From contig CAXGWS010000004.1 of NCBI GenBank assembly GCA_964013535.1, positions 22,854 through 86,853 on the forward strand: a stretch of DNA of 64,000 nt, in the 5' to 3' direction. This document shows, in pieces, positions 1,909-50,390 of this stretch. This stretch comes from an uncultured Candidatus Poseidoniales archaeon. Lineage in GTDB: Archaea > Thermoplasmatota > Poseidoniia > Poseidoniales > Poseidoniaceae. Positions within the stretch are counted from its first letter, which is position 1; the number at the start of each line of letters is the position of its first letter. The notes beneath the pieces were generated by a model. It worked only from the letters and a program-made list of their open reading frames with translations. It did no database searches and was not told where the DNA came from. A program made the translations under genes and the position numbers.

Positions 1909-2021
1909 CTGAGTTGGTATTTGCCGGTTTTTTTGTTAGTTTTATTGCGTTTATGACAAGGTGAACCTTGAAGTTCAATGTCGTTTTGGGTCAAATATCC
2001 CCAAGGGGGATGGTGAATATT

Positions 2022-3026
2022 ATGAGTGACCGCCTTTATGTTGGAATTGACCTAGGAACATACCAATCTACAATCTCTTCGAGTGCTGGTGCAAGCCACA
2101 CTATTGAGACTATTGTAGGTAGACCGAAAGACCCTGTCGCAAGGAATTTCCTTGGACGTGATGTGCTATTTGGCAACGATGCGTTGAAGAATAAGTTGGC
2201 TTGTAATTTATACCGGCCAATGGCCGCCGGTGTTGCCCAAGATGATGAGGCAAACTTGGCAGCTGCTAAGGCATTCGTTTCTCATCTACTAGAAACAGTA
2301 GATCCTGAAGAGTATGACGAAGTTTTCGGAGTCATATGCTCTCCAAGCCACGTCTCGTTCACTGATAAGTCAAACCTTGTTGCAACACTCAGAGGCCAAG
2401 TAAACGCAATCATGGTCGTCACAGAACCCTTTGCAACAGCGTATGGGATTGAAGAAATTGCCGGTTCAATTGTTGTTGATATTGGTGCTGGAACCACTGA
2501 TATCGCTCGTATTCACGGCACCTTCCCTTCCGATGAAGACCAAATCACAATCCAAGAAGCTGGCGATTGGTTAGACTTGGAACTTATGGGATTAGTCGAA
2601 AAGAAATACACTGGTGCTCAAGTTACCAAAGACATGGTACGTCGCTGGAAAGAAGCATCATCATATGTCGGTAGTGAAACAAAAGAAGTCATGGTAGAAC
2701 TTTCAGTAGAAGGCAAGAAACAAGTTGTTGACATTGGCGATTTAATTGTCGAGGCTTGTGAATCTATTGTGCCGCTTATTGCCAATGCGATAAAGAAGAT
2801 TGTTGCGACAGCAGACCCAGAATATCAACCAGTCCTCAGAAACAACATCATTCTCTCTGGTGGCGGCTCTTTAATCGACGGTATTGCTGCAAGAATGGCA
2901 GAGGAAATTTCTGATATCGGTGATGTCAATGTTTGGTGTGTTGAAGATGCAATCAATAGCGTTGCTAACGGCGCACTAAAACTCGCCGGTGAAATGCCAG
3001 ATGATATGTATACTGCAATTAACTAA
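2022..3026 (+). CDS. Actin-family ATPase, MamK/salactin-like
   Basis: Actin-fold motifs GIDLGT, TEPFATAYG, VDIGAGTTD and LSGGGS. Segments resemble MamK (VGxPKD, EDQITxxxAGxxLD, PEYQxxxxxNI). Start moved to ATG 2022, which follows GGGGGATGGTGA. Confidence 0.85.
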   Translation: MSDRLYVGIDLGTYQSTISSSAGASHTIETIVGRPKDPVARNFLGRDVLFGNDALKNKLACNLYRPMAAGVAQDDEANLAAAKAFVSHLLETVDPEEYDEVFGVICSPSHVSFTDKSNLVATLRGQVNAIMVVTEPFATAYGIEEIAGSIVVDIGAGTTDIARIHGTFPSDEDQITIQEAGDWLDLELMGLVEKKYTGAQVTKDMVRRWKEASSYVGSETKEVMVELSVEGKKQVVDIGDLIVEACESIVPLIANAIKKIVATADPEYQPVLRNNIILSGGGSLIDGIAARMAEEISDIGDVNVWCVEDAINSVANGALKLAGEMPDDMYTAIN

Positions 3027-28608: not shown

Positions 28609-29256
28609 TATTTCGTCTAATTCATCGATTAAATTATCCCACTTCTTACGAGCTAAATTTTTATTTTGTACTTCCAACCCATCTTCAATAGAAGATCTAA
28701 CTCCAATTAATCTATCCTCACCAACTCTTTCGTTTTTATCAGTGGGGTTTATTGTTTTACTTGGGATAGTTCGCTTACCGTCGTAATTCTGCATTGCTAA
28801 TTCTTCATCAGTCCATGTTTCATCTCCAATCATCTTGGCAATCTCATTACTCGGCGGGTTATTTTTCCAAACATTTTTACTACCTAAATCTTGTAACAAA
28901 CGTTTTGATTGAGATTCATTTTTGTTATATAATTCACTAATATCTTCAGGATAAACATAACCACCATCAAAACTCACACTACCGATTAACGATTGTTGAT
29001 AGGTCAATTCTTCTCCATGAATCTCGTCATTGTCAAACATTTCTGGTTTTGACAACATAGAATATAATTCCCTCATATGTTGAATCAAGACAGAATCATC
29101 ATTACCGATTATAATATTTTTAATTTTTTTATGATAATCTATACATATTTTACATCGAAGCAAACCACTTTTATCAACAGCATCGCAACGTAAACAACAC
29201 CCTTGAAATCCTAAAGATTTCATTGCTTTGCGTGGCTGCGCCATTATATCAACCAT
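28594..29256 (-). CDS. Hypothetical protein with an N-terminal Cys4 motif
   Basis: CCLRC...CKIC near the N-terminus; 222-aa ORF filling the gap between flanking genes. Confidence 0.65.
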   Translation of the reverse strand: MVDIMAQPRKAMKSLGFQGCCLRCDAVDKSGLLRCKICIDYHKKIKNIIIGNDDSVLIQHMRELYSMLSKPEMFDNDEIHGEELTYQQSLIGSVSFDGGYVYPEDISELYNKNESQSKRLLQDLGSKNVWKNNPPSNEIAKMIGDETWTDEELAMQNYDGKRTIPSKTINPTDKNERVGEDRLIGVRSSIEDGLEVQNKNLARKKWDNLIDELDEILDDL

Positions 29257-35571: not shown

Positions 35572-36381
35572 ATGGCAACGGTTCGTTTGGACCAAAAAGC
35601 GAGGGCGCTGATAAGAGCCATACCCGATTCTTATCATTCCGCTTTAGCCAAATTCTTCGGAACCGGGCCCAAAGATATCGAGACTGCACGAAAACAGCAC
35701 AACGCGTATAAATCAGCATTAGAATCTGCAGGTATCGAAGTTTTCATGCTCGAAGCAGACCATAACCACCCGGATTGTCTGTTTGTTGAAGATCAAGCTG
35801 TGATAATTGATGGCCACGTTTTGTTACCAGTTCCCGGACATCCGTCAAGGGTAAATGAACAACCTCCAATTGCAGACTTCCTTGTTAGAGAAATGGGGGG
35901 CGCTCAAATTTGCCGTATGAGTGGTGATGCAAGAATGGATGGTGGAGACATACTTCGATTAGGCGATATTTTCTTTGTAGGGCGTTCCACAAGAACTAAT
36001 GATTTAGGAATTGAAGAATTAAGAGATTTATTATCCCACTTAGGTCATGAACTAAGAGTAATAGATATTCCCGAGCAGGCATTGCACTTAACCAGTATAG
36101 CCTCAACTCCAACAGACGAGATAATATTAGCTCCAGAAGGATATCTTCCTAAGGATGCCTTCGGAGATTTACCAAATGGATGTAAAGTGATATGGATGCC
36201 ACCCGAGGAAACCTATGGATGTAATACAATTGGCCTGCCAGGGCAAAAAGTATTGGTTGCTGAAGGCTATCCCGAGGTTGAGAAAACCCTTACCAATTTA
36301 GGCCTTGAAACTATCAAACTAGATTTTAGTGAAATTAGGGCTGCAGACGGTTCGCTGACTTGCTGTTCATTGTTTTACTGA
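35572..36381 (+). CDS. Dimethylarginine dimethylaminohydrolase (amidinotransferase superfamily)
   Basis: HPDCLFVEDQAV, DGGDIL, VGRSTRTN, LHLTS and DGSLTCCS motifs. Confidence 0.85.
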   Translation: MATVRLDQKARALIRAIPDSYHSALAKFFGTGPKDIETARKQHNAYKSALESAGIEVFMLEADHNHPDCLFVEDQAVIIDGHVLLPVPGHPSRVNEQPPIADFLVREMGGAQICRMSGDARMDGGDILRLGDIFFVGRSTRTNDLGIEELRDLLSHLGHELRVIDIPEQALHLTSIASTPTDEIILAPEGYLPKDAFGDLPNGCKVIWMPPEETYGCNTIGLPGQKVLVAEGYPEVEKTLTNLGLETIKLDFSEIRAADGSLTCCSLFY

Positions 36382-36755
36382 CTGAAGACCAAACTCAACC
36401 ACAAATTGAGGTTTGATTGCAAATCTTTTTTGCTACTACAATTTATTAAGTCACCATCAAAACACGATTGGTTTAACAAATCTTTGAGTATAATTTCATT
36501 ATTATCACAGATTAACTCTAATGTTTTCTCATGATTCGAGTATATTCCAACCTCAAAAACGAAGCCGATATTTTGCTTATTTAGTTCAATGAATTTTTCG
36601 GAAAATATGAAAGAACAGAAATCATCAACGCTTAGGAACGAACAAAGCATTGAGAGGGTATTTACTAATGGCGTAAATTGTTCATTTATCGATGCTATTG
36701 CATCATTTGGCGATTTTATCACCATTGTTAGCAGTGGTGTACCCTCATTCACCAC
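36375..36755 (-). CDS. Hypothetical protein
   Basis: 126-aa ORF overlapping the SDR stop codon on the same strand; no recognised motif. Confidence 0.5.
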   Translation of the reverse strand: MVNEGTPLLTMVIKSPNDAIASINEQFTPLVNTLSMLCSFLSVDDFCSFIFSEKFIELNKQNIGFVFEVGIYSNHEKTLELICDNNEIILKDLLNQSCFDGDLINCSSKKDLQSNLNLWLSLVFSQ

Positions 36756-37426
36756 GGTAAATCAACACCATCATATTGCACAAATCTACCAGAATTCTCG
36801 ATATCATGAGAATCGATCAAATCTAGCATTCCTTGTACACTATCAGTTAGTTCAACCGGGGCATGCTCACCACCCATTCGAGTTTTTACCCAACCTGGAT
36901 GCAAAATTAAAAATGATATATTGTCCTCTATTGCTTCTTTTTTCATCGCTACACTAAGCATGTTTAGTGCTGTTTTTGAAGCTCGGTAAGCATAAGAACG
37001 GCCCGAATGACAATCATCAATCGAACCCATTAAACTACTAATCATGGCAACAGTAGTCATAGAATCATGACTCATTTTATCATATAGCGCCTTAACCATA
37101 CGTACAGGACCCACAGAGTTGATATTCAACACCTCTAACATCCATTCATCATCAATTTCCTTCAAATTACGCCAGCGCCCATCTGGAACACCAGCATTAT
37201 TAATTAATAAATCCACATTTCCATCAATTCGCTTAACAAAATCGTTTATTGAATCGTTATTTGTAACATCAAGCTGGTGACAAATCAAATTTTTGTTTTG
37301 AATTAATTCAAGCCTGTGCATATCCGATCTGTATCCCGCATATACACACCAACCAGCATCAAGTAGTCTAACAACAAATTCAGAACCGATTCCTCTACTA
37401 GCGCCTGTTACTACGGCAGTTCGCAT
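36749..37426 (-). CDS. Short-chain dehydrogenase/reductase (CsgA/C-factor-like)
   Basis: TGASRGIG, LINNAG, YRASK and LHPGWVKTRMG motifs. Confidence 0.93.
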   Translation of the reverse strand: MRTAVVTGASRGIGSEFVVRLLDAGWCVYAGYRSDMHRLELIQNKNLICHQLDVTNNDSINDFVKRIDGNVDLLINNAGVPDGRWRNLKEIDDEWMLEVLNINSVGPVRMVKALYDKMSHDSMTTVAMISSLMGSIDDCHSGRSYAYRASKTALNMLSVAMKKEAIEDNISFLILHPGWVKTRMGGEHAPVELTDSVQGMLDLIDSHDIENSGRFVQYDGVDLPW

Positions 37427-37466: not shown

Positions 37467-37844
37467 TTATTTACAATCATTGCATACGCCTTTCCAGGTT
37501 AAATCAATTTCAAAATCTCCGAACGACTCATTCATTGGGGCAAAATCACGAATTTCTGCCGGCAGTTCTACATCCCAAATTCTGTTGCACTTCGAGCATA
37601 CTATGTGAGCGTGAGGTTGCATTACTGGGTCGTAACGTACTTCACCTTGAAACTCAAAACTTCCAATCTTGCCATCTTCTACAAGGTTTGAAAGTTGCCG
37701 ATAGATTGTTGCGATTCCTATTCCGGAGTCAGCAAGAATTGCATATATGTCGCCCGCAGAGGGATGGGAGTCGCTATTCATAACGGCCTCGAAAACCATC
37801 TCTTTTTGCCATGTTAAACGGCGCTTTTTCTGTTTATTCATCAT
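37467..37844 (-). CDS. Fur-family transcriptional regulator with PerR-like metal ligands
   Basis: HPSAGDIY, ATIYRQL, RYD, HAHIVCSKC, IWD and CNDC motifs; 9 bp downstream of katG. Confidence 0.9.
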   Translation of the reverse strand: MMNKQKKRRLTWQKEMVFEAVMNSDSHPSAGDIYAILADSGIGIATIYRQLSNLVEDGKIGSFEFQGEVRYDPVMQPHAHIVCSKCNRIWDVELPAEIRDFAPMNESFGDFEIDLTWKGVCNDCK

Positions 37845-37853
37845 TTTCGAACC

Positions 37854-40067
<2,214 letters not shown>

Positions 40068-40504: not shown

Positions 40505-41638
40505 ATGCGTGTTGGCATTGTTGTCAATCCTGATGCCGGATTGGGTGGCAAACTTGGCTTCAAGGGTAGTGATGGACGAGCCAAAGAAGCGAGAAAAGCA
40601 GGTGCACAAGACCGGGCAGGGCCTAGAATGGCCCTCTGCTTAGATAGGTTTGCTGAACTACTAAATTCGTCGCTGAATAGAGCGGGGATGTCTCCAACAT
40701 TATTGGCATGGGACGGTCGAATGGGTGGCGATTGGATTACCAATGATTACACCTCATTGGGAGAAACTCCCGACTCAACAAGTGCCGATGATACCAGCAG
40801 TCTAGTGTCGCAACTGATTGAGCACGAGGTTGACGTCATCCTGTACGCTGGTGGCGACGGAACAACTAGGGATATTGTCAACACCTTAGGAGAGGTTAAA
40901 ATCCCATTAATTGGTGTCCCAGGGGGCGTAAAAATGCACTCAGGTTGCTTTGCAACCACTCCAAATGCAGCCGCAGAGGTCCTTTTTTCATTTGTTATTG
41001 GTGATTTAATGTCATCTATTACCGAAGTTATGGATTTGGATGAAGAAATTTATCTAACTGGTCAATGGAAAGTTCGAATGTATGGTGAAGCATTAACCCC
41101 AGCAAGCCCCCGATTCATGCAAGGTGCTAAACAGCAGGTTGAGAGGTCGTCGGAAGCAGAAATTATCGAAGGGTTGGCCAGCCATATTAATGAATTAATC
41201 ATCAATGATCCCGAACTCATGGTAGTTTGGGGTAGCGGTGGTACACTTCGACTAATTGGTGAGCTGATAGGTCAAGAACTAACTCTTCTCGGCATTGATA
41301 TCCAATATCAAGACAAAGTGTATAATGACCTTAACGAACAAGAATTAATCAAAATCTTATCAACACACAGCGGGAACAAACTTCTCCTTCTTTCACCAAT
41401 GGGTGGCCAAGGATTTTTGATTGGTCGCGGCAACTTGCAATTATCTCCTGAGGTACTGAGAATAATTGGTATTGAGTCTATTTTAGGCGTTGCGACGCCG
41501 GGTAAACTGACTGGGCTATCAAATGTTAGAATCGATACTGGAGAGGAATCCTTGGACAATGAATTTAAGCAACGTAAATTCGTTAAAATGTTACAGGGAT
41601 ATCGTACAACAAGAGTAATTCGCGTAGCAGATATCTAA
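40505..41638 (+). CDS. ATP-NAD/AcoX kinase family protein
   Basis: GIVVNPDAGLGG, GGDGTTRD, GVPGGVKMHSGCFA and GGQGFLIGRGNLQLS motifs. Confidence 0.85.
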   Translation: MRVGIVVNPDAGLGGKLGFKGSDGRAKEARKAGAQDRAGPRMALCLDRFAELLNSSLNRAGMSPTLLAWDGRMGGDWITNDYTSLGETPDSTSADDTSSLVSQLIEHEVDVILYAGGDGTTRDIVNTLGEVKIPLIGVPGGVKMHSGCFATTPNAAAEVLFSFVIGDLMSSITEVMDLDEEIYLTGQWKVRMYGEALTPASPRFMQGAKQQVERSSEAEIIEGLASHINELIINDPELMVVWGSGGTLRLIGELIGQELTLLGIDIQYQDKVYNDLNEQELIKILSTHSGNKLLLLSPMGGQGFLIGRGNLQLSPEVLRIIGIESILGVATPGKLTGLSNVRIDTGEESLDNEFKQRKFVKMLQGYRTTRVIRVADI

Positions 41639-46103: not shown

Positions 46104-47681
46104 TTACATATCATCATTTGGCAACTCTGGCATTTCCATATCCTGCTTCGCCCATAATACATCATCTATTCTCAAAATAGCAATAGCGACTTCTGTAGCA
46201 CCAATTAATGCCTGCTTAACTATGCCCAATGGTTCTAATACGCCCGTATCAAACATATCCTCTGGTTTTCCAGTGGCTAAGTCCACTCCAAAGCGGTCGG
46301 AATCAGTATTGGTTTGTTTAGCTACAACATCGAGAAGGGTCGTAATCGGGTCAATTCCAGCATTTTCTGCCAATACTCTGACTATTACCTCAATCGCATC
46401 AGCATATGCTTCAACCGCTAATTGTTCTCGTCCAGGTATGGTTTCTGCAAACCGCCTTAAACGGCGTGCTAATGCTACATAGGACGCACCTCCACCACAT
46501 ACTACAGCACCATCTTCAATCAACTGGACACTAACTCCAAGAGAGTCATCAAAACATCGTTCCACTTCACCGACAATGTCAACAGTACTTCCTTTAGCAA
46601 TGATTGTTGCAGCCTTCCCTTCACCTTCGACTACCCAGAAGTCCTTTGCGTCAATAGCAATATTGTTGCTTGAAATAAAATCTCCTAAATCACTGGGGGT
46701 GCTTGCAGTAATTGAGTTAACCAACCTTGCTCCACAGGATTTAGCAAGCATGTTTAGATCATTTCTTGAAACTCTCCGGAAAGCTTGAATTCCGTGTTTA
46801 ACCAGATAATTCTTGACATCATCATCAATACTTTCTCGGCACGCTAATACGTTAACACCATACTCAACAAGTCGGTCAACCTGAACCATCAGCATATGTC
46901 GCTCCTCTTGCCTGAAAGATTCCAAGACGCCGATACTTGTTACATTCAATTTTAGGTCTGTAGAGACATTTTTCTTCTCAAGCCCCCCATCTATCAAAAT
47001 TATTTTTCCGTTACTAACTTCTTTTGCCATATCACTTGAGATGCGCTTTTTTGGCAACATTAAACCTTGAAACACTTTAGAATCTTCAACTGTACCTCCG
47101 GTTTGCGATATTAGTTTAATCTTTGAAATATCTACTGAATTATCTTCATCAGCGACCATTTTTACAGCATCCAATGATAAGTCCGCAATTTTTTGTTGCA
47201 TTGAGGCATGTCCTTTACCCGCTAAAGAAGTCTTGACAACGGTCTTTCTCATTTCTTCATCTGAGTCCAATTTAATCTCGTCAATACAGTTTAGGATATA
47301 CTGTTCAGCGTTTCTGTAGCCCCTTGCGATGGTTGATGGGTGAATACCTTGCAGTACTAACTGCCACGCATTCTGCAACATTTCTCCTGCAAGAATTACT
47401 GTACTTGTGGTACCGTCCTTAGCAATTCTGTCTTGTGTCGATGAAGCATTAATCATCATTTTTGCCACAGGGTGTTCAACTTTGGCCGTTTCCAGTACCG
47501 TAACACCGTCATTGGTCACTAAAGTCCTTCCTTCATCATCGATCAATAGTTTATCCAAACCTTTCGGACCTAATGTCGAACGTATGGCTTCAGACAGAGC
47601 CATTGCTGCTTGAATGTTTTTTTGTAGAGCCTCTCTCCCACTTGAGCGTGCCGTATCTTTGAGAATTGGGGCTTCGCTCAT
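46104..47681 (-). CDS. Thermosome (group II chaperonin) subunit, divergent
   Basis: STLGPKGLDK, TNDGVTVL, VEHPVAKM, KDGTTS, GGGA and ILRIDD motifs. Confidence 0.92.
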   Translation of the reverse strand: MSEAPILKDTARSSGREALQKNIQAAMALSEAIRSTLGPKGLDKLLIDDEGRTLVTNDGVTVLETAKVEHPVAKMMINASSTQDRIAKDGTTSTVILAGEMLQNAWQLVLQGIHPSTIARGYRNAEQYILNCIDEIKLDSDEEMRKTVVKTSLAGKGHASMQQKIADLSLDAVKMVADEDNSVDISKIKLISQTGGTVEDSKVFQGLMLPKKRISSDMAKEVSNGKIILIDGGLEKKNVSTDLKLNVTSIGVLESFRQEERHMLMVQVDRLVEYGVNVLACRESIDDDVKNYLVKHGIQAFRRVSRNDLNMLAKSCGARLVNSITASTPSDLGDFISSNNIAIDAKDFWVVEGEGKAATIIAKGSTVDIVGEVERCFDDSLGVSVQLIEDGAVVCGGGASYVALARRLRRFAETIPGREQLAVEAYADAIEVIVRVLAENAGIDPITTLLDVVAKQTNTDSDRFGVDLATGKPEDMFDTGVLEPLGIVKQALIGATEVAIAILRIDDVLWAKQDMEMPELPNDDM

Positions 47682-47716
47682 GGCATTCCCACAACCATCA
47701 TAGAAATAAGTGCGTC

Positions 47717-49603
47717 TCAATCTTCGTCGACTACTTCAAAATCAGCGTCAACCACATCGTCACCGCCAACATCGATATTTCCTTCATCTTGGGAACCTTC
47801 TTGCTCAGCCATTTCAGCCGATGCCGCCTCGTATAGTTTAGCCGATACACCATGCATTGCTTCTTCGATCTCTTTCACCTTAGCTTGTATCGCTGCATCA
47901 TCTACAGCATCAATTTCCAATGGTTTTCCATCTTCGTCTTGGACCAACTTCTCTAACTCATCTAAGCGTTCTTTGACAGGGTTTACATCATCATCTTCTA
48001 GTTTGTCAGCGGACTCATCAAGCGTTCTTCTGGTTTGATATAGCACTTGGTCAGCCATATTTCTTAATTCAACCTTAGCCTTTCGCTGCTTATCTTCTTC
48101 GGCAAAGTTTTCTGCTTCTGCGATCTTTGCTTGGATTTCATCTTCTGAAAGGGATGTCTGCGCTTCAATCTTGACCGATTGCTCTTTTCCTGTACCCATA
48201 TCTTTGGCACTAACGTTGACAATTCCGTTGGCGTCGATATCGAAGGTAACTTCGATTTGCGGCACACCACGCGGGGCAGCCGGAATACCCATGAGAGTAA
48301 ATTCACCCAGAGTTACATTGTCTTTAGCAAATTCTCTCTCGCCTTGCAAAACATGTATGGTAACTGCAGGCTGGTTATCAGATGCAGTTGAGTAAATTTC
48401 AGATCGTCGAGCAGGAATTGTAGTATTCCTTTCAATCATAGTTGTCATAACGCCTCCGAGGGTTTCTATTCCCAAAGTCAGTGGGGTTACATCAAGCAGT
48501 AGAACATCTGAAACACCCTCATCTCCGGCAATTATGCCCGCTTGCAAAGCTGCACCCATGGCAACCGCCTCATCTGGATTAATTCCTTTGTAGGGAGCCT
48601 TACCTGCCTCGTTTTCAACGGCTTCTTGAACTGCCGGAACTCTTGTTGAGCCGCCGACTAGAATCACTTTGTCAACGTCACCTTTCTTGACACCAGCATC
48701 CTTCATTGCTTGCCTGGTAGGAGTCATGGTTTTTTCAATGAGTTTGGCAATTAGGCTTTCAAACTTGGCTCGAGTCAAGGTCATGTCCAAGTGTTCAGGT
48801 TGCCCGTCAACCATTGTTATGAACGGCAAATTGATTTGCGTTTGTTGAGTGCCTGACAACTCAATTTTAGCCTTTTCAGCAGCTTCCTTCAGTCTTGACA
48901 TAGCAGTCAAATCCTTTGACAAATCTATACCTGTGTCCTTTTTGAAATCCTTAACTAACCAATCAATCACTTGCTCATCGAAATCATCGCCGCCCAATTT
49001 GTTGTTTCCTGCAGTTGCTTTAACCTCAATTTGAGGCTGACCATCTACTTGGTAAATTTCCAAAATAGAGACGTCAAAAGTACCACCGCCTAGGTCGTAA
49101 ACAAGTATGGTTTGGTCGTCTTCCTTGTCTACTCCATAAGCTAACGCAGCCGCTGTCGGCTCGTTGATGATTCTCAGAACCTCAAGTCCGGCAATACGAC
49201 CAGCATCCTTGGTCGCTGTTCTTTGTGCATCGGTGAAGTATGCTGGACAGGTAATTACTGCTTGCTTGACTTCTGAGCCAAGATATGCTTCCGCATCTGC
49301 CTTCAGTTTTTGCAAAATAAACGCTGAAATCTCTTGAGGAGTGTATTCTTTTTCGTCAATTTTAGTATTCCAATCTGTGCCCATGTGGCGTTTAACGGAG
49401 AGCAGTGTTCGCTGAGAATTTGTCACAGCCTGCCTTTTCGCAGTCACTCCGATTAATCTCTCGCCGCCATCTTTAGCAAATGCGACAACAGACGGAGTCG
49501 TTCTCGCTCCTTCTGCGTTTGCAATTACTACTGCTTCTCCGTTCTCAATTGTTGCTACACAACTATTCGTTGTTCCCAAATCTATTCCTATTACTTTACC
49601 CAT
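47717..49603 (-). CDS. dnaK: Hsp70 chaperone DnaK
   Basis: [54 protein letters not shown] and [16 protein letters not shown] motifs; GGAAG SD-like motif upstream. Confidence 0.98.
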
Positions 49604-49620
49604 TTTTTCACTTCCTTTTC

Positions 49621-50310
49621 TCAAAATATTGGAATTCCACCATCATCTTCATCTTCATCATCATCACCAAAGTCTAGACTGACCTCAGCGTTAGGGGAAT
49701 CATCTTCAATATCCTCTAGAGCCGAGCCTTGAGGCGTCAACTTCAGTGTAATATCGAGGATTCCGTTATTCAGCGACCAGCCTACAACATCCTCACAAGG
49801 ATGCGGTAGTTTGATTCTGGCCATTGGTTTAAGTTGCGTTTCTTTCATAATTTCCAGCAGCGATCCACCCTTTGAAAGGTTCATTTCCATTTGCATTTCT
49901 TTGACGTCGCCTTTCAATGCGAAATCAATAGTGATTGACATGTTCCATCCATCGAGGTAGAAATCGTCACTTGGCAGCTTGAGAATTTCATCGTCATCGT
50001 CATCCTCAATCTCTGGAGTTTTTATTTCCATAGGCGCGGCATCGACTTTGACATCCATACCTAGATTACTGAGGATGTCTTCCATAGATTGGCCAGATTG
50101 GAACATTTTACTAAGGTTCGAAAGGTCAAAATTGAAGTTTACATCACCACTGTTTAACTTATCAGCATCTAAACCCATTTTTTCGAATTGTGATTTGAAT
50201 TGGTTCATTAGCCCTTTAATTTGTTCTTTATTCAGCGACATACCCATGCTTCTAAACATCTCAACCAAGCGGTCAATCATCTGTTCTTCCCAGTCGTCCC
50301 CGTCACTCAT
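49621..50310 (-). CDS. Hsp20/alpha-crystallin-like protein, divergent
   Basis: Met-rich N-terminal region; C-terminal RIKLP...[10 protein letters not shown] resembles the alpha-crystallin motif; directly upstream of dnaK. Confidence 0.6.
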
Positions 50311-50390
50311 ATTACCACTACTTAACCATCGGTTACATAGTGGCCAACGAGTCAACATATATCAACATCACGAAGAAAAAATATACAAAA

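Follow-up and report, generated by a model that had tools for sequence, protein, structure and literature searches.

Organization of the katG Locus

The stretch of DNA analyzed here (the window, 64 kb in full) carries a catalase-peroxidase gene followed by a gene for a small Fur-family regulator (Table 1). This order of katG and regulator, seen directly in the sequences, is conserved in five Marine Group IIa (MGIIa) lineages. The spacer between the two genes, 9 nt in the window and 9–20 nt in the other four lineages, is here so short that a separate promoter has no room, and the regulator is predicted to be co-transcribed with katG. No other Fur-family gene was found in the 64-kb window, nor did scans for Rfam families and tRNAs return anything there.

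Among named relatives, those nearest to the regulator and to KatG alike belong to Candidatus Poseidoniaceae (Marine Group IIa), with KatG being 80–90% identical to Ca. Poseidoniaceae KatG proteins. The window also bears archaeal marks, namely a thermosome, an archaeal-type HMG-CoA synthase and a geranylgeranyl (DGGGP-type) reductase, and its contig also occurs in marine assemblies, those of Tara Oceans among them. Because the host is archaeal, the regulator is expected to work with TBP/TFB promoters, and the promoter mechanism would differ from the bacterial case.

TABLE 1. Features of the katG–regulator locus, in window coordinates. Distances with a minus sign are counted from the katG ATG.
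Feature	Position	Strand	Remarks
SDR-family oxidoreductase gene	36749..37426	-	Pfam adh_short; start 40 nt downstream of the regulator
PerR-type Fur-family regulator gene	37467..37844	-	125 aa; Pfam FUR
Regulator codons C121/C124	37473-37484
Regulator codon D91	37572-37574
Regulator codons C83/C86	37587-37598
Regulator codon H80	37605-37607
Regulator codon H78	37611-37613
Regulator codon D72	37629-37631
Regulator codons Y48-R49	37698-37703
Regulator codon H27	37764-37766
Regulator codon R9	37818-37820
Spacer, katG stop to regulator start	37845..37853	-	9 nt; GGTTCGAAA after TAA; read directly
katG, catalase-peroxidase HPI	37854..40010	-	718 aa; first gene of the operon; TIGR00198 (1078 bits) and PRK15061 (1150 bits), both past cut-off
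TATA-like TTTATG	40034..40039	-	-29..-24; adjoins the operator; assigned by conservation and position
19-bp Fur-box-like palindrome	40040..40058	.	GATAATGAATATCATTATC (- strand); 30-48 nt before the start of katG
Conserved operator core	40042..40059	-	TGATAATGAATATCATTA; family pattern TGATAATNAWWATCATTA; -49..-32
7-1-7 Fur-type site	40045..40059	-	TGATAAT-G-AATATCA; -49..-35; inside the operator core

The SDR-family oxidoreductase gene downstream of the regulator may be a further member of the operon or may have an AT-rich promoter of its own. It follows the regulator in loci L007, L009, L019, L035, L037, and L039. Together with a 125-aa open reading frame without family assignment (36375..37426, minus strand, for the pair) it was seen after the regulator in every MGIIa lineage examined, and in the Poseidonia sp. 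locus L041, where the regulator is missing, it still adjoins katG in convergent orientation. A functional tie between the SDR gene and katG is possible.

Sequence and Predicted Structure of the Regulator

The protein encoded at 37467..37844 is a member of the Fur family (Pfam FUR, PF01475, 1.6e-16; 60.9 bits, cut-off 23.1). Its top NCBIfam matches are the PerR equivalogs NF047406 (69.3 bits) and NF052545 (65.4 bits), both scores lying far under the curated PerR cut-offs (200 and 180 bits, respectively); Bacillus Fur scored 43 bits, likewise far under its cut-off. In a phmmer search of the PDB the first match was B. subtilis PerR (2fe3/3f8n, 1e-11). The ligand region aligns with that of B. subtilis PerR without gaps, H27 corresponding to H37, D72 to D85, H78 and H80 to H91 and H93, and D91 to D104. 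The two cysteine pairs, C83/C86 and C121/C124, correspond to C96/C99 and C136/C139. This alignment, with the codons checked, bears out an earlier note on this DNA, which had likened the ligand set and the two CxxC motifs to those of B. subtilis PerR. The note had also placed an Arg where PerR has Asn61. In the recognition helix, ATIYRQL is matched to ATVYNNL of B. subtilis PerR, Y48-R49 standing for Y60-N61, and R49 indeed lies opposite N61.

All three His of the protein lie in the predicted regulatory site, and with only these three His the protein lacks the extra, His-rich third metal site that many Fur proteins have. The four Cys make up the two CxxC motifs. Both carboxylate ligands, D72 and D91, are Asp, whereas the Fur structures aligned by phmmer (PDB) have Glu at the D104 position. 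An Asp at this position predicts H2O2 reactivity without proving it. H78 and H80 do not vary among 140 relatives, and H27, D72, and D91 are each conserved in at least 90% of them; the four Cys are invariant among the relatives aligned. R9 belongs to a basic N-terminal tail (KQKKRR) that is conserved across the family.

An AlphaFold2 model built with the 140 relatives as input reached a mean pLDDT of 88. It superposes best on the closed PerR-Zn-Mn structure 3f8n (TM 0.80) and on metal-loaded Fur structures. The top 50 Foldseek matches were all Fur-family structures, a comparison of fold in which PerR cannot be told from Fur, Zur, or Nur.

A Conserved Palindrome Upstream of katG

The spacer upstream of katG is 57 nt long (taatctcttaTTGATAATGAATATCATTATCTTTATGtccctcctcaagttgcgaaaatcATG). 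The earlier note had reported a Fur box upstream of the operon to which the regulator belongs, and one is found at 40040..40058: the site agrees with the E. coli consensus GATAATGATAATCATTATC at 18 of 19 positions on the plus strand and at 17 of 19 on the minus strand (one to two mismatches to a consensus that is E. coli's own). It is the sole Fur-box-like site in the 64 kb, where 0.08 would be expected by chance at three mismatches or fewer.

The upstream regions of katG were compared in five MGIIa lineages, the regulators of the other four being 70, 46, 48, and 49% identical to the protein of the window. The spacer upstream of katG is equally long in all five, and all share TGATAATNAWWATCATTA-NN-TTTAT at a fixed distance to the katG ATG. 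Within the block TA-TGATAAT-N-A-WW-ATCATTA-NN-TTTAT, 22 of 28 columns are invariant, compared with 4 of 32 outside it. The G and C that separate TGATAAT (Fur) from TTATAAT (PerR) half-sites are invariant in the five lineages. In L035 the operator reads GATAATGATAATCATTAT, still nearer the classic Fur box. Each locus having katG and the regulator has one exact operator match upstream of katG. The predicted operator is thus supported by comparative conservation across MGIIa lineages. In a bacterium (L031/L032), an identical operator 18-mer is located between the gene for a catalase and a perR-like gene (Arg-type, 35% identical).

The katG locus of L041 (Poseidonia sp. MAG, GCA_049616625.1) has neither an adjacent Fur-family gene nor a Fur-type box. 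Box and regulator therefore occur together: the box is observed in 5/5 lineages with the regulator and is absent from L041, which lacks it. At the same -29..-24 position L041 has TTATAT. This hexamer and the invariance of TTTAT in the five lineages lead to the TATA assignment by position and conservation; an AT-content profile upstream of 22 genes of the window gave no clear TATA position. We infer that TTTAT is a TATA box, and in that case its place at -29..-25 from the ATG would make the katG transcript leaderless or nearly so. In the otherwise variable katG leader (40011..40033, minus strand), GTT at -15..-13 and T at -19 are invariant in the five lineages.

The upstream region of L041 (2400-2500) contains GAAACTCA, a motif that also adjoins the TATA-like element of an operon with a second type of MGIIa paralogue, P0008 (L014, 2450-2457). 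There are hints here that this other paralogue might control katG in L041.

A Per-type operator was also considered and rejected, as the search for the Per box (TTATAATNATTATAA) gave a single match of chance level in the window, at 29109. Neither a second operator box nor an iron-uptake gene with a box was found in the 64-kb window. A near-palindrome with two mismatches to the operator pattern (TGATATCCAATATCA) was noticed at 41296..41310, within an NAD kinase gene, the count of such matches being at chance level.

Relatives of the Regulator and Their Neighbors

A profile search, run exhaustively, recovered 5443 relatives, and the residues at the N61/D85/D104 positions were tallied in the best 151 of their 50%-identity cluster representatives. 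Among these closest representatives the combination R/D/D occurs in 122/151 and N/D/D in 10/151, and the helix motif YRNL is present in 95/151. All of the 140 aligned relatives match both PerR models. A scan of genome contigs with the single regulator protein found no relative, and the same scan with the family alignment found two MAG loci. Arg with Asp/Asp is the usual pattern of this branch of PerR and no rarity. The earlier note had presented the regulator as a hybrid of PerR and Fur; this special status is not supported, with R/D/D in 122/151 representatives and also in the characterized PerR of C. difficile, and the word should best be dropped for this regulator.

The second MGIIa paralogue, P0008, is 42% identical and has the same YRQL helix (ATVYRQL). 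Its gene is the last of an operon with ferritin/rubrerythrin-like, CCG-domain, and DUF3501 genes, divergent from an AhpC-type peroxiredoxin gene (L014:2480-5384). No TGATAAT-type site was found at the P0008 locus with up to three mismatches allowed. Since P0008 has the same helix and no such box, we gave up the view that the sequence of the helix is by itself enough to set the operator. It follows that the claim that the residues of the regulator predict its operator holds in part: the Arg fits the invariant G, but it accounts for one contact and not for the whole operator. The shared spacer of the P0008 locus (L014:2423-2479) has TGAGAACGAAACTCA (TGAG-N7-CTCA) immediately before TTTATA.

Other relatives also neighbor such genes, P0012 preceding a peroxiredoxin gene and P0014 being divergent from a catalase gene. 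Upstream of a bacterial pair of Arg-type perR-like and peroxiredoxin genes (L029:3955-3990) lies the inverted repeat TAATCATTA-N8-TAATGATTA. Its half-sites are AGTAAT and not TGATAAT, so one common box is not used by all Arg-type regulators. One match of a different kind, P0034 (1971 aa), is a repeat protein in which the CxxC-to-Asp region of the regulator (residues 85-112) is matched ten times, by separate stretches.

Comparison with Characterized Regulators

The actinobacterial pairs furA-katG and furS-cpeB each place a gene of the Fur family on one transcript with that of a catalase-peroxidase, and the Fur-family gene is autoregulated. Compared by gene adjacency alone, the fur gene comes first in those pairs, whereas katG comes first in MGIIa.

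The regulator shares with B. subtilis PerR, its top match among solved structures, the five regulatory ligands and the four Zn cysteines. It differs in having Arg49 for Asn61 and a TGATAAT-type instead of a TTATAAT operator, in lacking the N-terminal helix 1, and in being archaeal and katG-linked, whereas B. subtilis perR stands alone. The rules behind the earlier note, that Asn61 versus Arg61 discriminates Per from Fur boxes and that Asp104 versus Glu sets H2O2 sensitivity, are indeed stated in PMC8638851 and PMC8638967, with reference to Caux-Thang 2015 and Parent 2013. In the same PerR literature one Leptospira protein with Arg and Asp was left unassigned.

The PerR of C. difficile (CD0826) offers a closer precedent. 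Its sequence (PMC8546684, Fig. S1) reads ...SLGTVYRNL...RFD...NHYHIICEVCGEVYD...CNNC, which gives R44/D68/D87. In EMSA it shifts the DNA of its promoter, and in vivo H2O2 releases it (PMC8546684). Both proteins have Arg after the helix-4 Tyr (TVYRNL and TIYRQL), Asp/Asp, HxH, and two CxxC motifs, and both have a short N-terminus without the first helix of B. subtilis PerR and are close in size (129 and 125 aa). Each is also encoded within a peroxide-defense operon, rbr-perR-sor in C. difficile, which is repressed by its PerR, and katG-perR in MGIIa, for which repression is proposed. The C. difficile protein differs in its identity of only 28%, its bacterial host, its sigma-A promoter, and its target, which is rubrerythrin/SOR rather than KatG. 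As C. difficile PerR also has Arg, the Asn61 criterion does not define the entire PerR family; the Asn61 hallmark fits the Bacillus/Staphylococcus/Leptospira type only.

In MgFur-DNA structures, Arg57 makes a bidentate contact to a conserved G, Tyr56 packs on thymine methyls, and Lys15 enters the narrow minor groove (PMC4506495). This triad of Lys15/Tyr56/Arg57 corresponds to R9/Y48/R49 of the MGIIa regulator. Compared with Fur from E. coli, B. subtilis, and Magnetospirillum, the MGIIa protein has Asp for Glu and no third metal site, and its only visible target in the 64-kb window is the peroxide-defense operon.

SisPerR from Saccharolobus islandicus is the only characterized archaeal PerR. 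It is a repressor of its own gene that is responsive to H2O2, and it lacks equivalents of H93, C99, and C139 (PMC11724291). The MGIIa regulator, by comparison, possesses every ligand of the bacterial set and is linked to katG. SisPerR controls dps, mntH, and nirD and not ROS-scavenging enzymes (PMC11724291), which counts against reading the MGIIa regulator as a PerR of katG. PerR homologues were described as scarce in Euryarchaea apart from Methanobacteria and Methanomicrobia (PMC11724291).

Discussion

The characters of PerR and Fur can be set side by side for the MGIIa protein. Of those of PerR, the regulatory site His37/Asp85/His91/His93/Asp104 is present, with Asp and not Glu at 104 (D91). 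The two CxxC motifs (C83/C86 and C121/C124) are predicted to form the structural Zn(Cys)4 site, and control of peroxide-detoxifying genes is suggested by context (katG linkage and the conserved upstream operator). The Bacillus-type combination of Asn61 with a TTATAATNATTATAA operator is not found, the protein having Arg49 and a TGATAAT-type operator. A helix-4 Arg with a Fur-box operator is a character of Fur and is present (R49; 18/19 positions of the E. coli consensus). Glu carboxylate ligands and the further His-rich site of many Fur proteins, also characters of Fur, are absent (D72/D91; three His).

We consider it probable, judging from sequence comparison, that this protein is a clostridial-type PerR with Arg in its recognition helix, which would sense peroxide in a Marine Group IIa archaeon and repress its own katG-perR operon. 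Fe2+ or Mn2+ bound at H27/D72/H78/H80/D91, together with Zn at the Cys4 site, would close the dimer. The closed dimer would then bind the operator TGATAAT-N-AWWATCA in a 7-1-7 arrangement, with Y48 and R49 reading the major groove, R49 on the invariant G, and R9 of the basic N-terminal tail in the narrow AT-rich minor groove. Since the operator ends 3 nt before TTTAT, the BRE position would be covered, and a bound repressor would block TBP/TFB assembly. Reaction of H2O2 with bound Fe2+ would oxidize a ligand His, and the protein would open and leave the DNA, allowing katG and the regulator to be transcribed. The regulator lies on the transcript governed by the box, and the circuit would therefore be autoregulated. 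Release by iron-catalyzed His oxidation, with peroxide and not metal alone as the signal, is suggested by the Asp/Asp ligands, the katG linkage, and the precedents of C. difficile and B. subtilis. Against the assignment to PerR stand the low scores with the curated PerR models, the identity of only 28% to C. difficile PerR, and a fold that fits Fur and Zur equally.

The same Arg49 and near-consensus Fur box would also suit a true Fur that senses iron (or manganese) and represses KatG, a haem enzyme, in line with the supply of metal, with no direct role for peroxide; the model of the protein fits Fur structures as well as PerR structures. KatG requires haem iron, and iron is scarce in the surface ocean, which counts for such a sensor. 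We take it to be unlikely. Both carboxylates are Asp, against Glu at the D104 position in aligned Fur (by the rule of PMC8638967), and there is no His-rich third site. The PerR profiles outscore Fur (69 and 65 versus 43 bits), and the neighbors of the relatives are rubrerythrin-like, AhpC, peroxiredoxin, and catalase genes, with iron transporters not among them. Finally, the 64 kb contain neither another box nor a boxed iron-uptake gene. A joint reading, which we regard as speculative and rather unlikely, would take R/D/D as an undifferentiated ancestral state of Fur and PerR. A single MGIIa protein would recognize an operator of the Fur type and integrate iron status with peroxide at katG, and Asn61 PerR with the TTATAAT box would have arisen only where a separate Fur needed shielding from cross-talk. 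The katG-perR-operator module would have crossed from bacteria to archaea, working there since an AT-rich Fur box can sit on BRE/TATA.

That the box serves a different Fur-family protein encoded elsewhere, for example of P0008 type, with other targets for the katG-linked protein, is conceivable given that P0008-type proteins of Ca. Poseidoniaceae share the ATVYRQL helix and that the visible portion of the genome is 64 kb. The box is nevertheless present in 5/5 lineages with an adjacent regulator and missing in the sole katG locus without one. The P0008 locus has no TGATAAT-type site (three mismatches or fewer), and the regulator is encoded on the box-controlled transcript, a classic layout for autoregulation. 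This pattern of presence and absence, together with the boxless P0008 locus, makes use of the box by the other paralogue very improbable. The four invariant Cys could instead sense oxidants themselves, through oxidation of the Zn-Cys4 site or a disulfide and with no metal-catalyzed His oxidation. Thiol sensing has been proposed for the katG-linked actinomycete Fur homologues FurS, CatR, and FurA, and the katG linkage seen here resembles furA-katG and furS-cpeB. We hold such a switch to be highly unlikely: the His/Asp site, needless for a thiol switch, is conserved across 140 relatives, and the Cys4 site is structural in PerR according to PMC11724291.

As a probable peroxide-sensing PerR with its operon, the locus offers a concrete candidate regulator, operator, and promoter for oxidative defense in Marine Group II (MGII). 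These archaea are uncultured, of ecological importance, and abundant in sunlit seawater, where H2O2 forms daily. Papers on MGII (PMC6336850, PMC10783094) list katG for MGIIa and name no regulator. If the proposed reading is true, the Saccharolobus protein would be joined by a second type of archaeal PerR, one that looks more bacterial. With that protein an archaeal PerR is already known, and what the MGIIa locus adds is a well-delimited PerR of the Arg type, not a novel kind of regulator. For the naming of PerR proteins, a rule of "Asn61 plus Asp104" misses the large Arg-type group. This group adjoins TGATAAT-type operators in at least two unrelated clades, as the N61R experiment would predict, and the comparisons are consistent with a link between Arg and a G-containing operator.

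Other Features of the Window

Two further regions of the window were noticed. At 1968..3026 (plus strand) lies a gene for an actin-like protein that matches the MamK family with 339 bits (cut-off 400), far above MreB. At 46104..50358 (minus strand), a gene for a DnaK of bacterial type (47717..49624) shares 4 nt with the downstream gene for a thermosome subunit (46104..47720, first TTG). A 245-aa open reading frame, to which no identity was assigned, lies upstream of the pair in the same region. DnaK and the thermosome are chaperone systems of different ancestry, here encoded in what appears to be a single operon.
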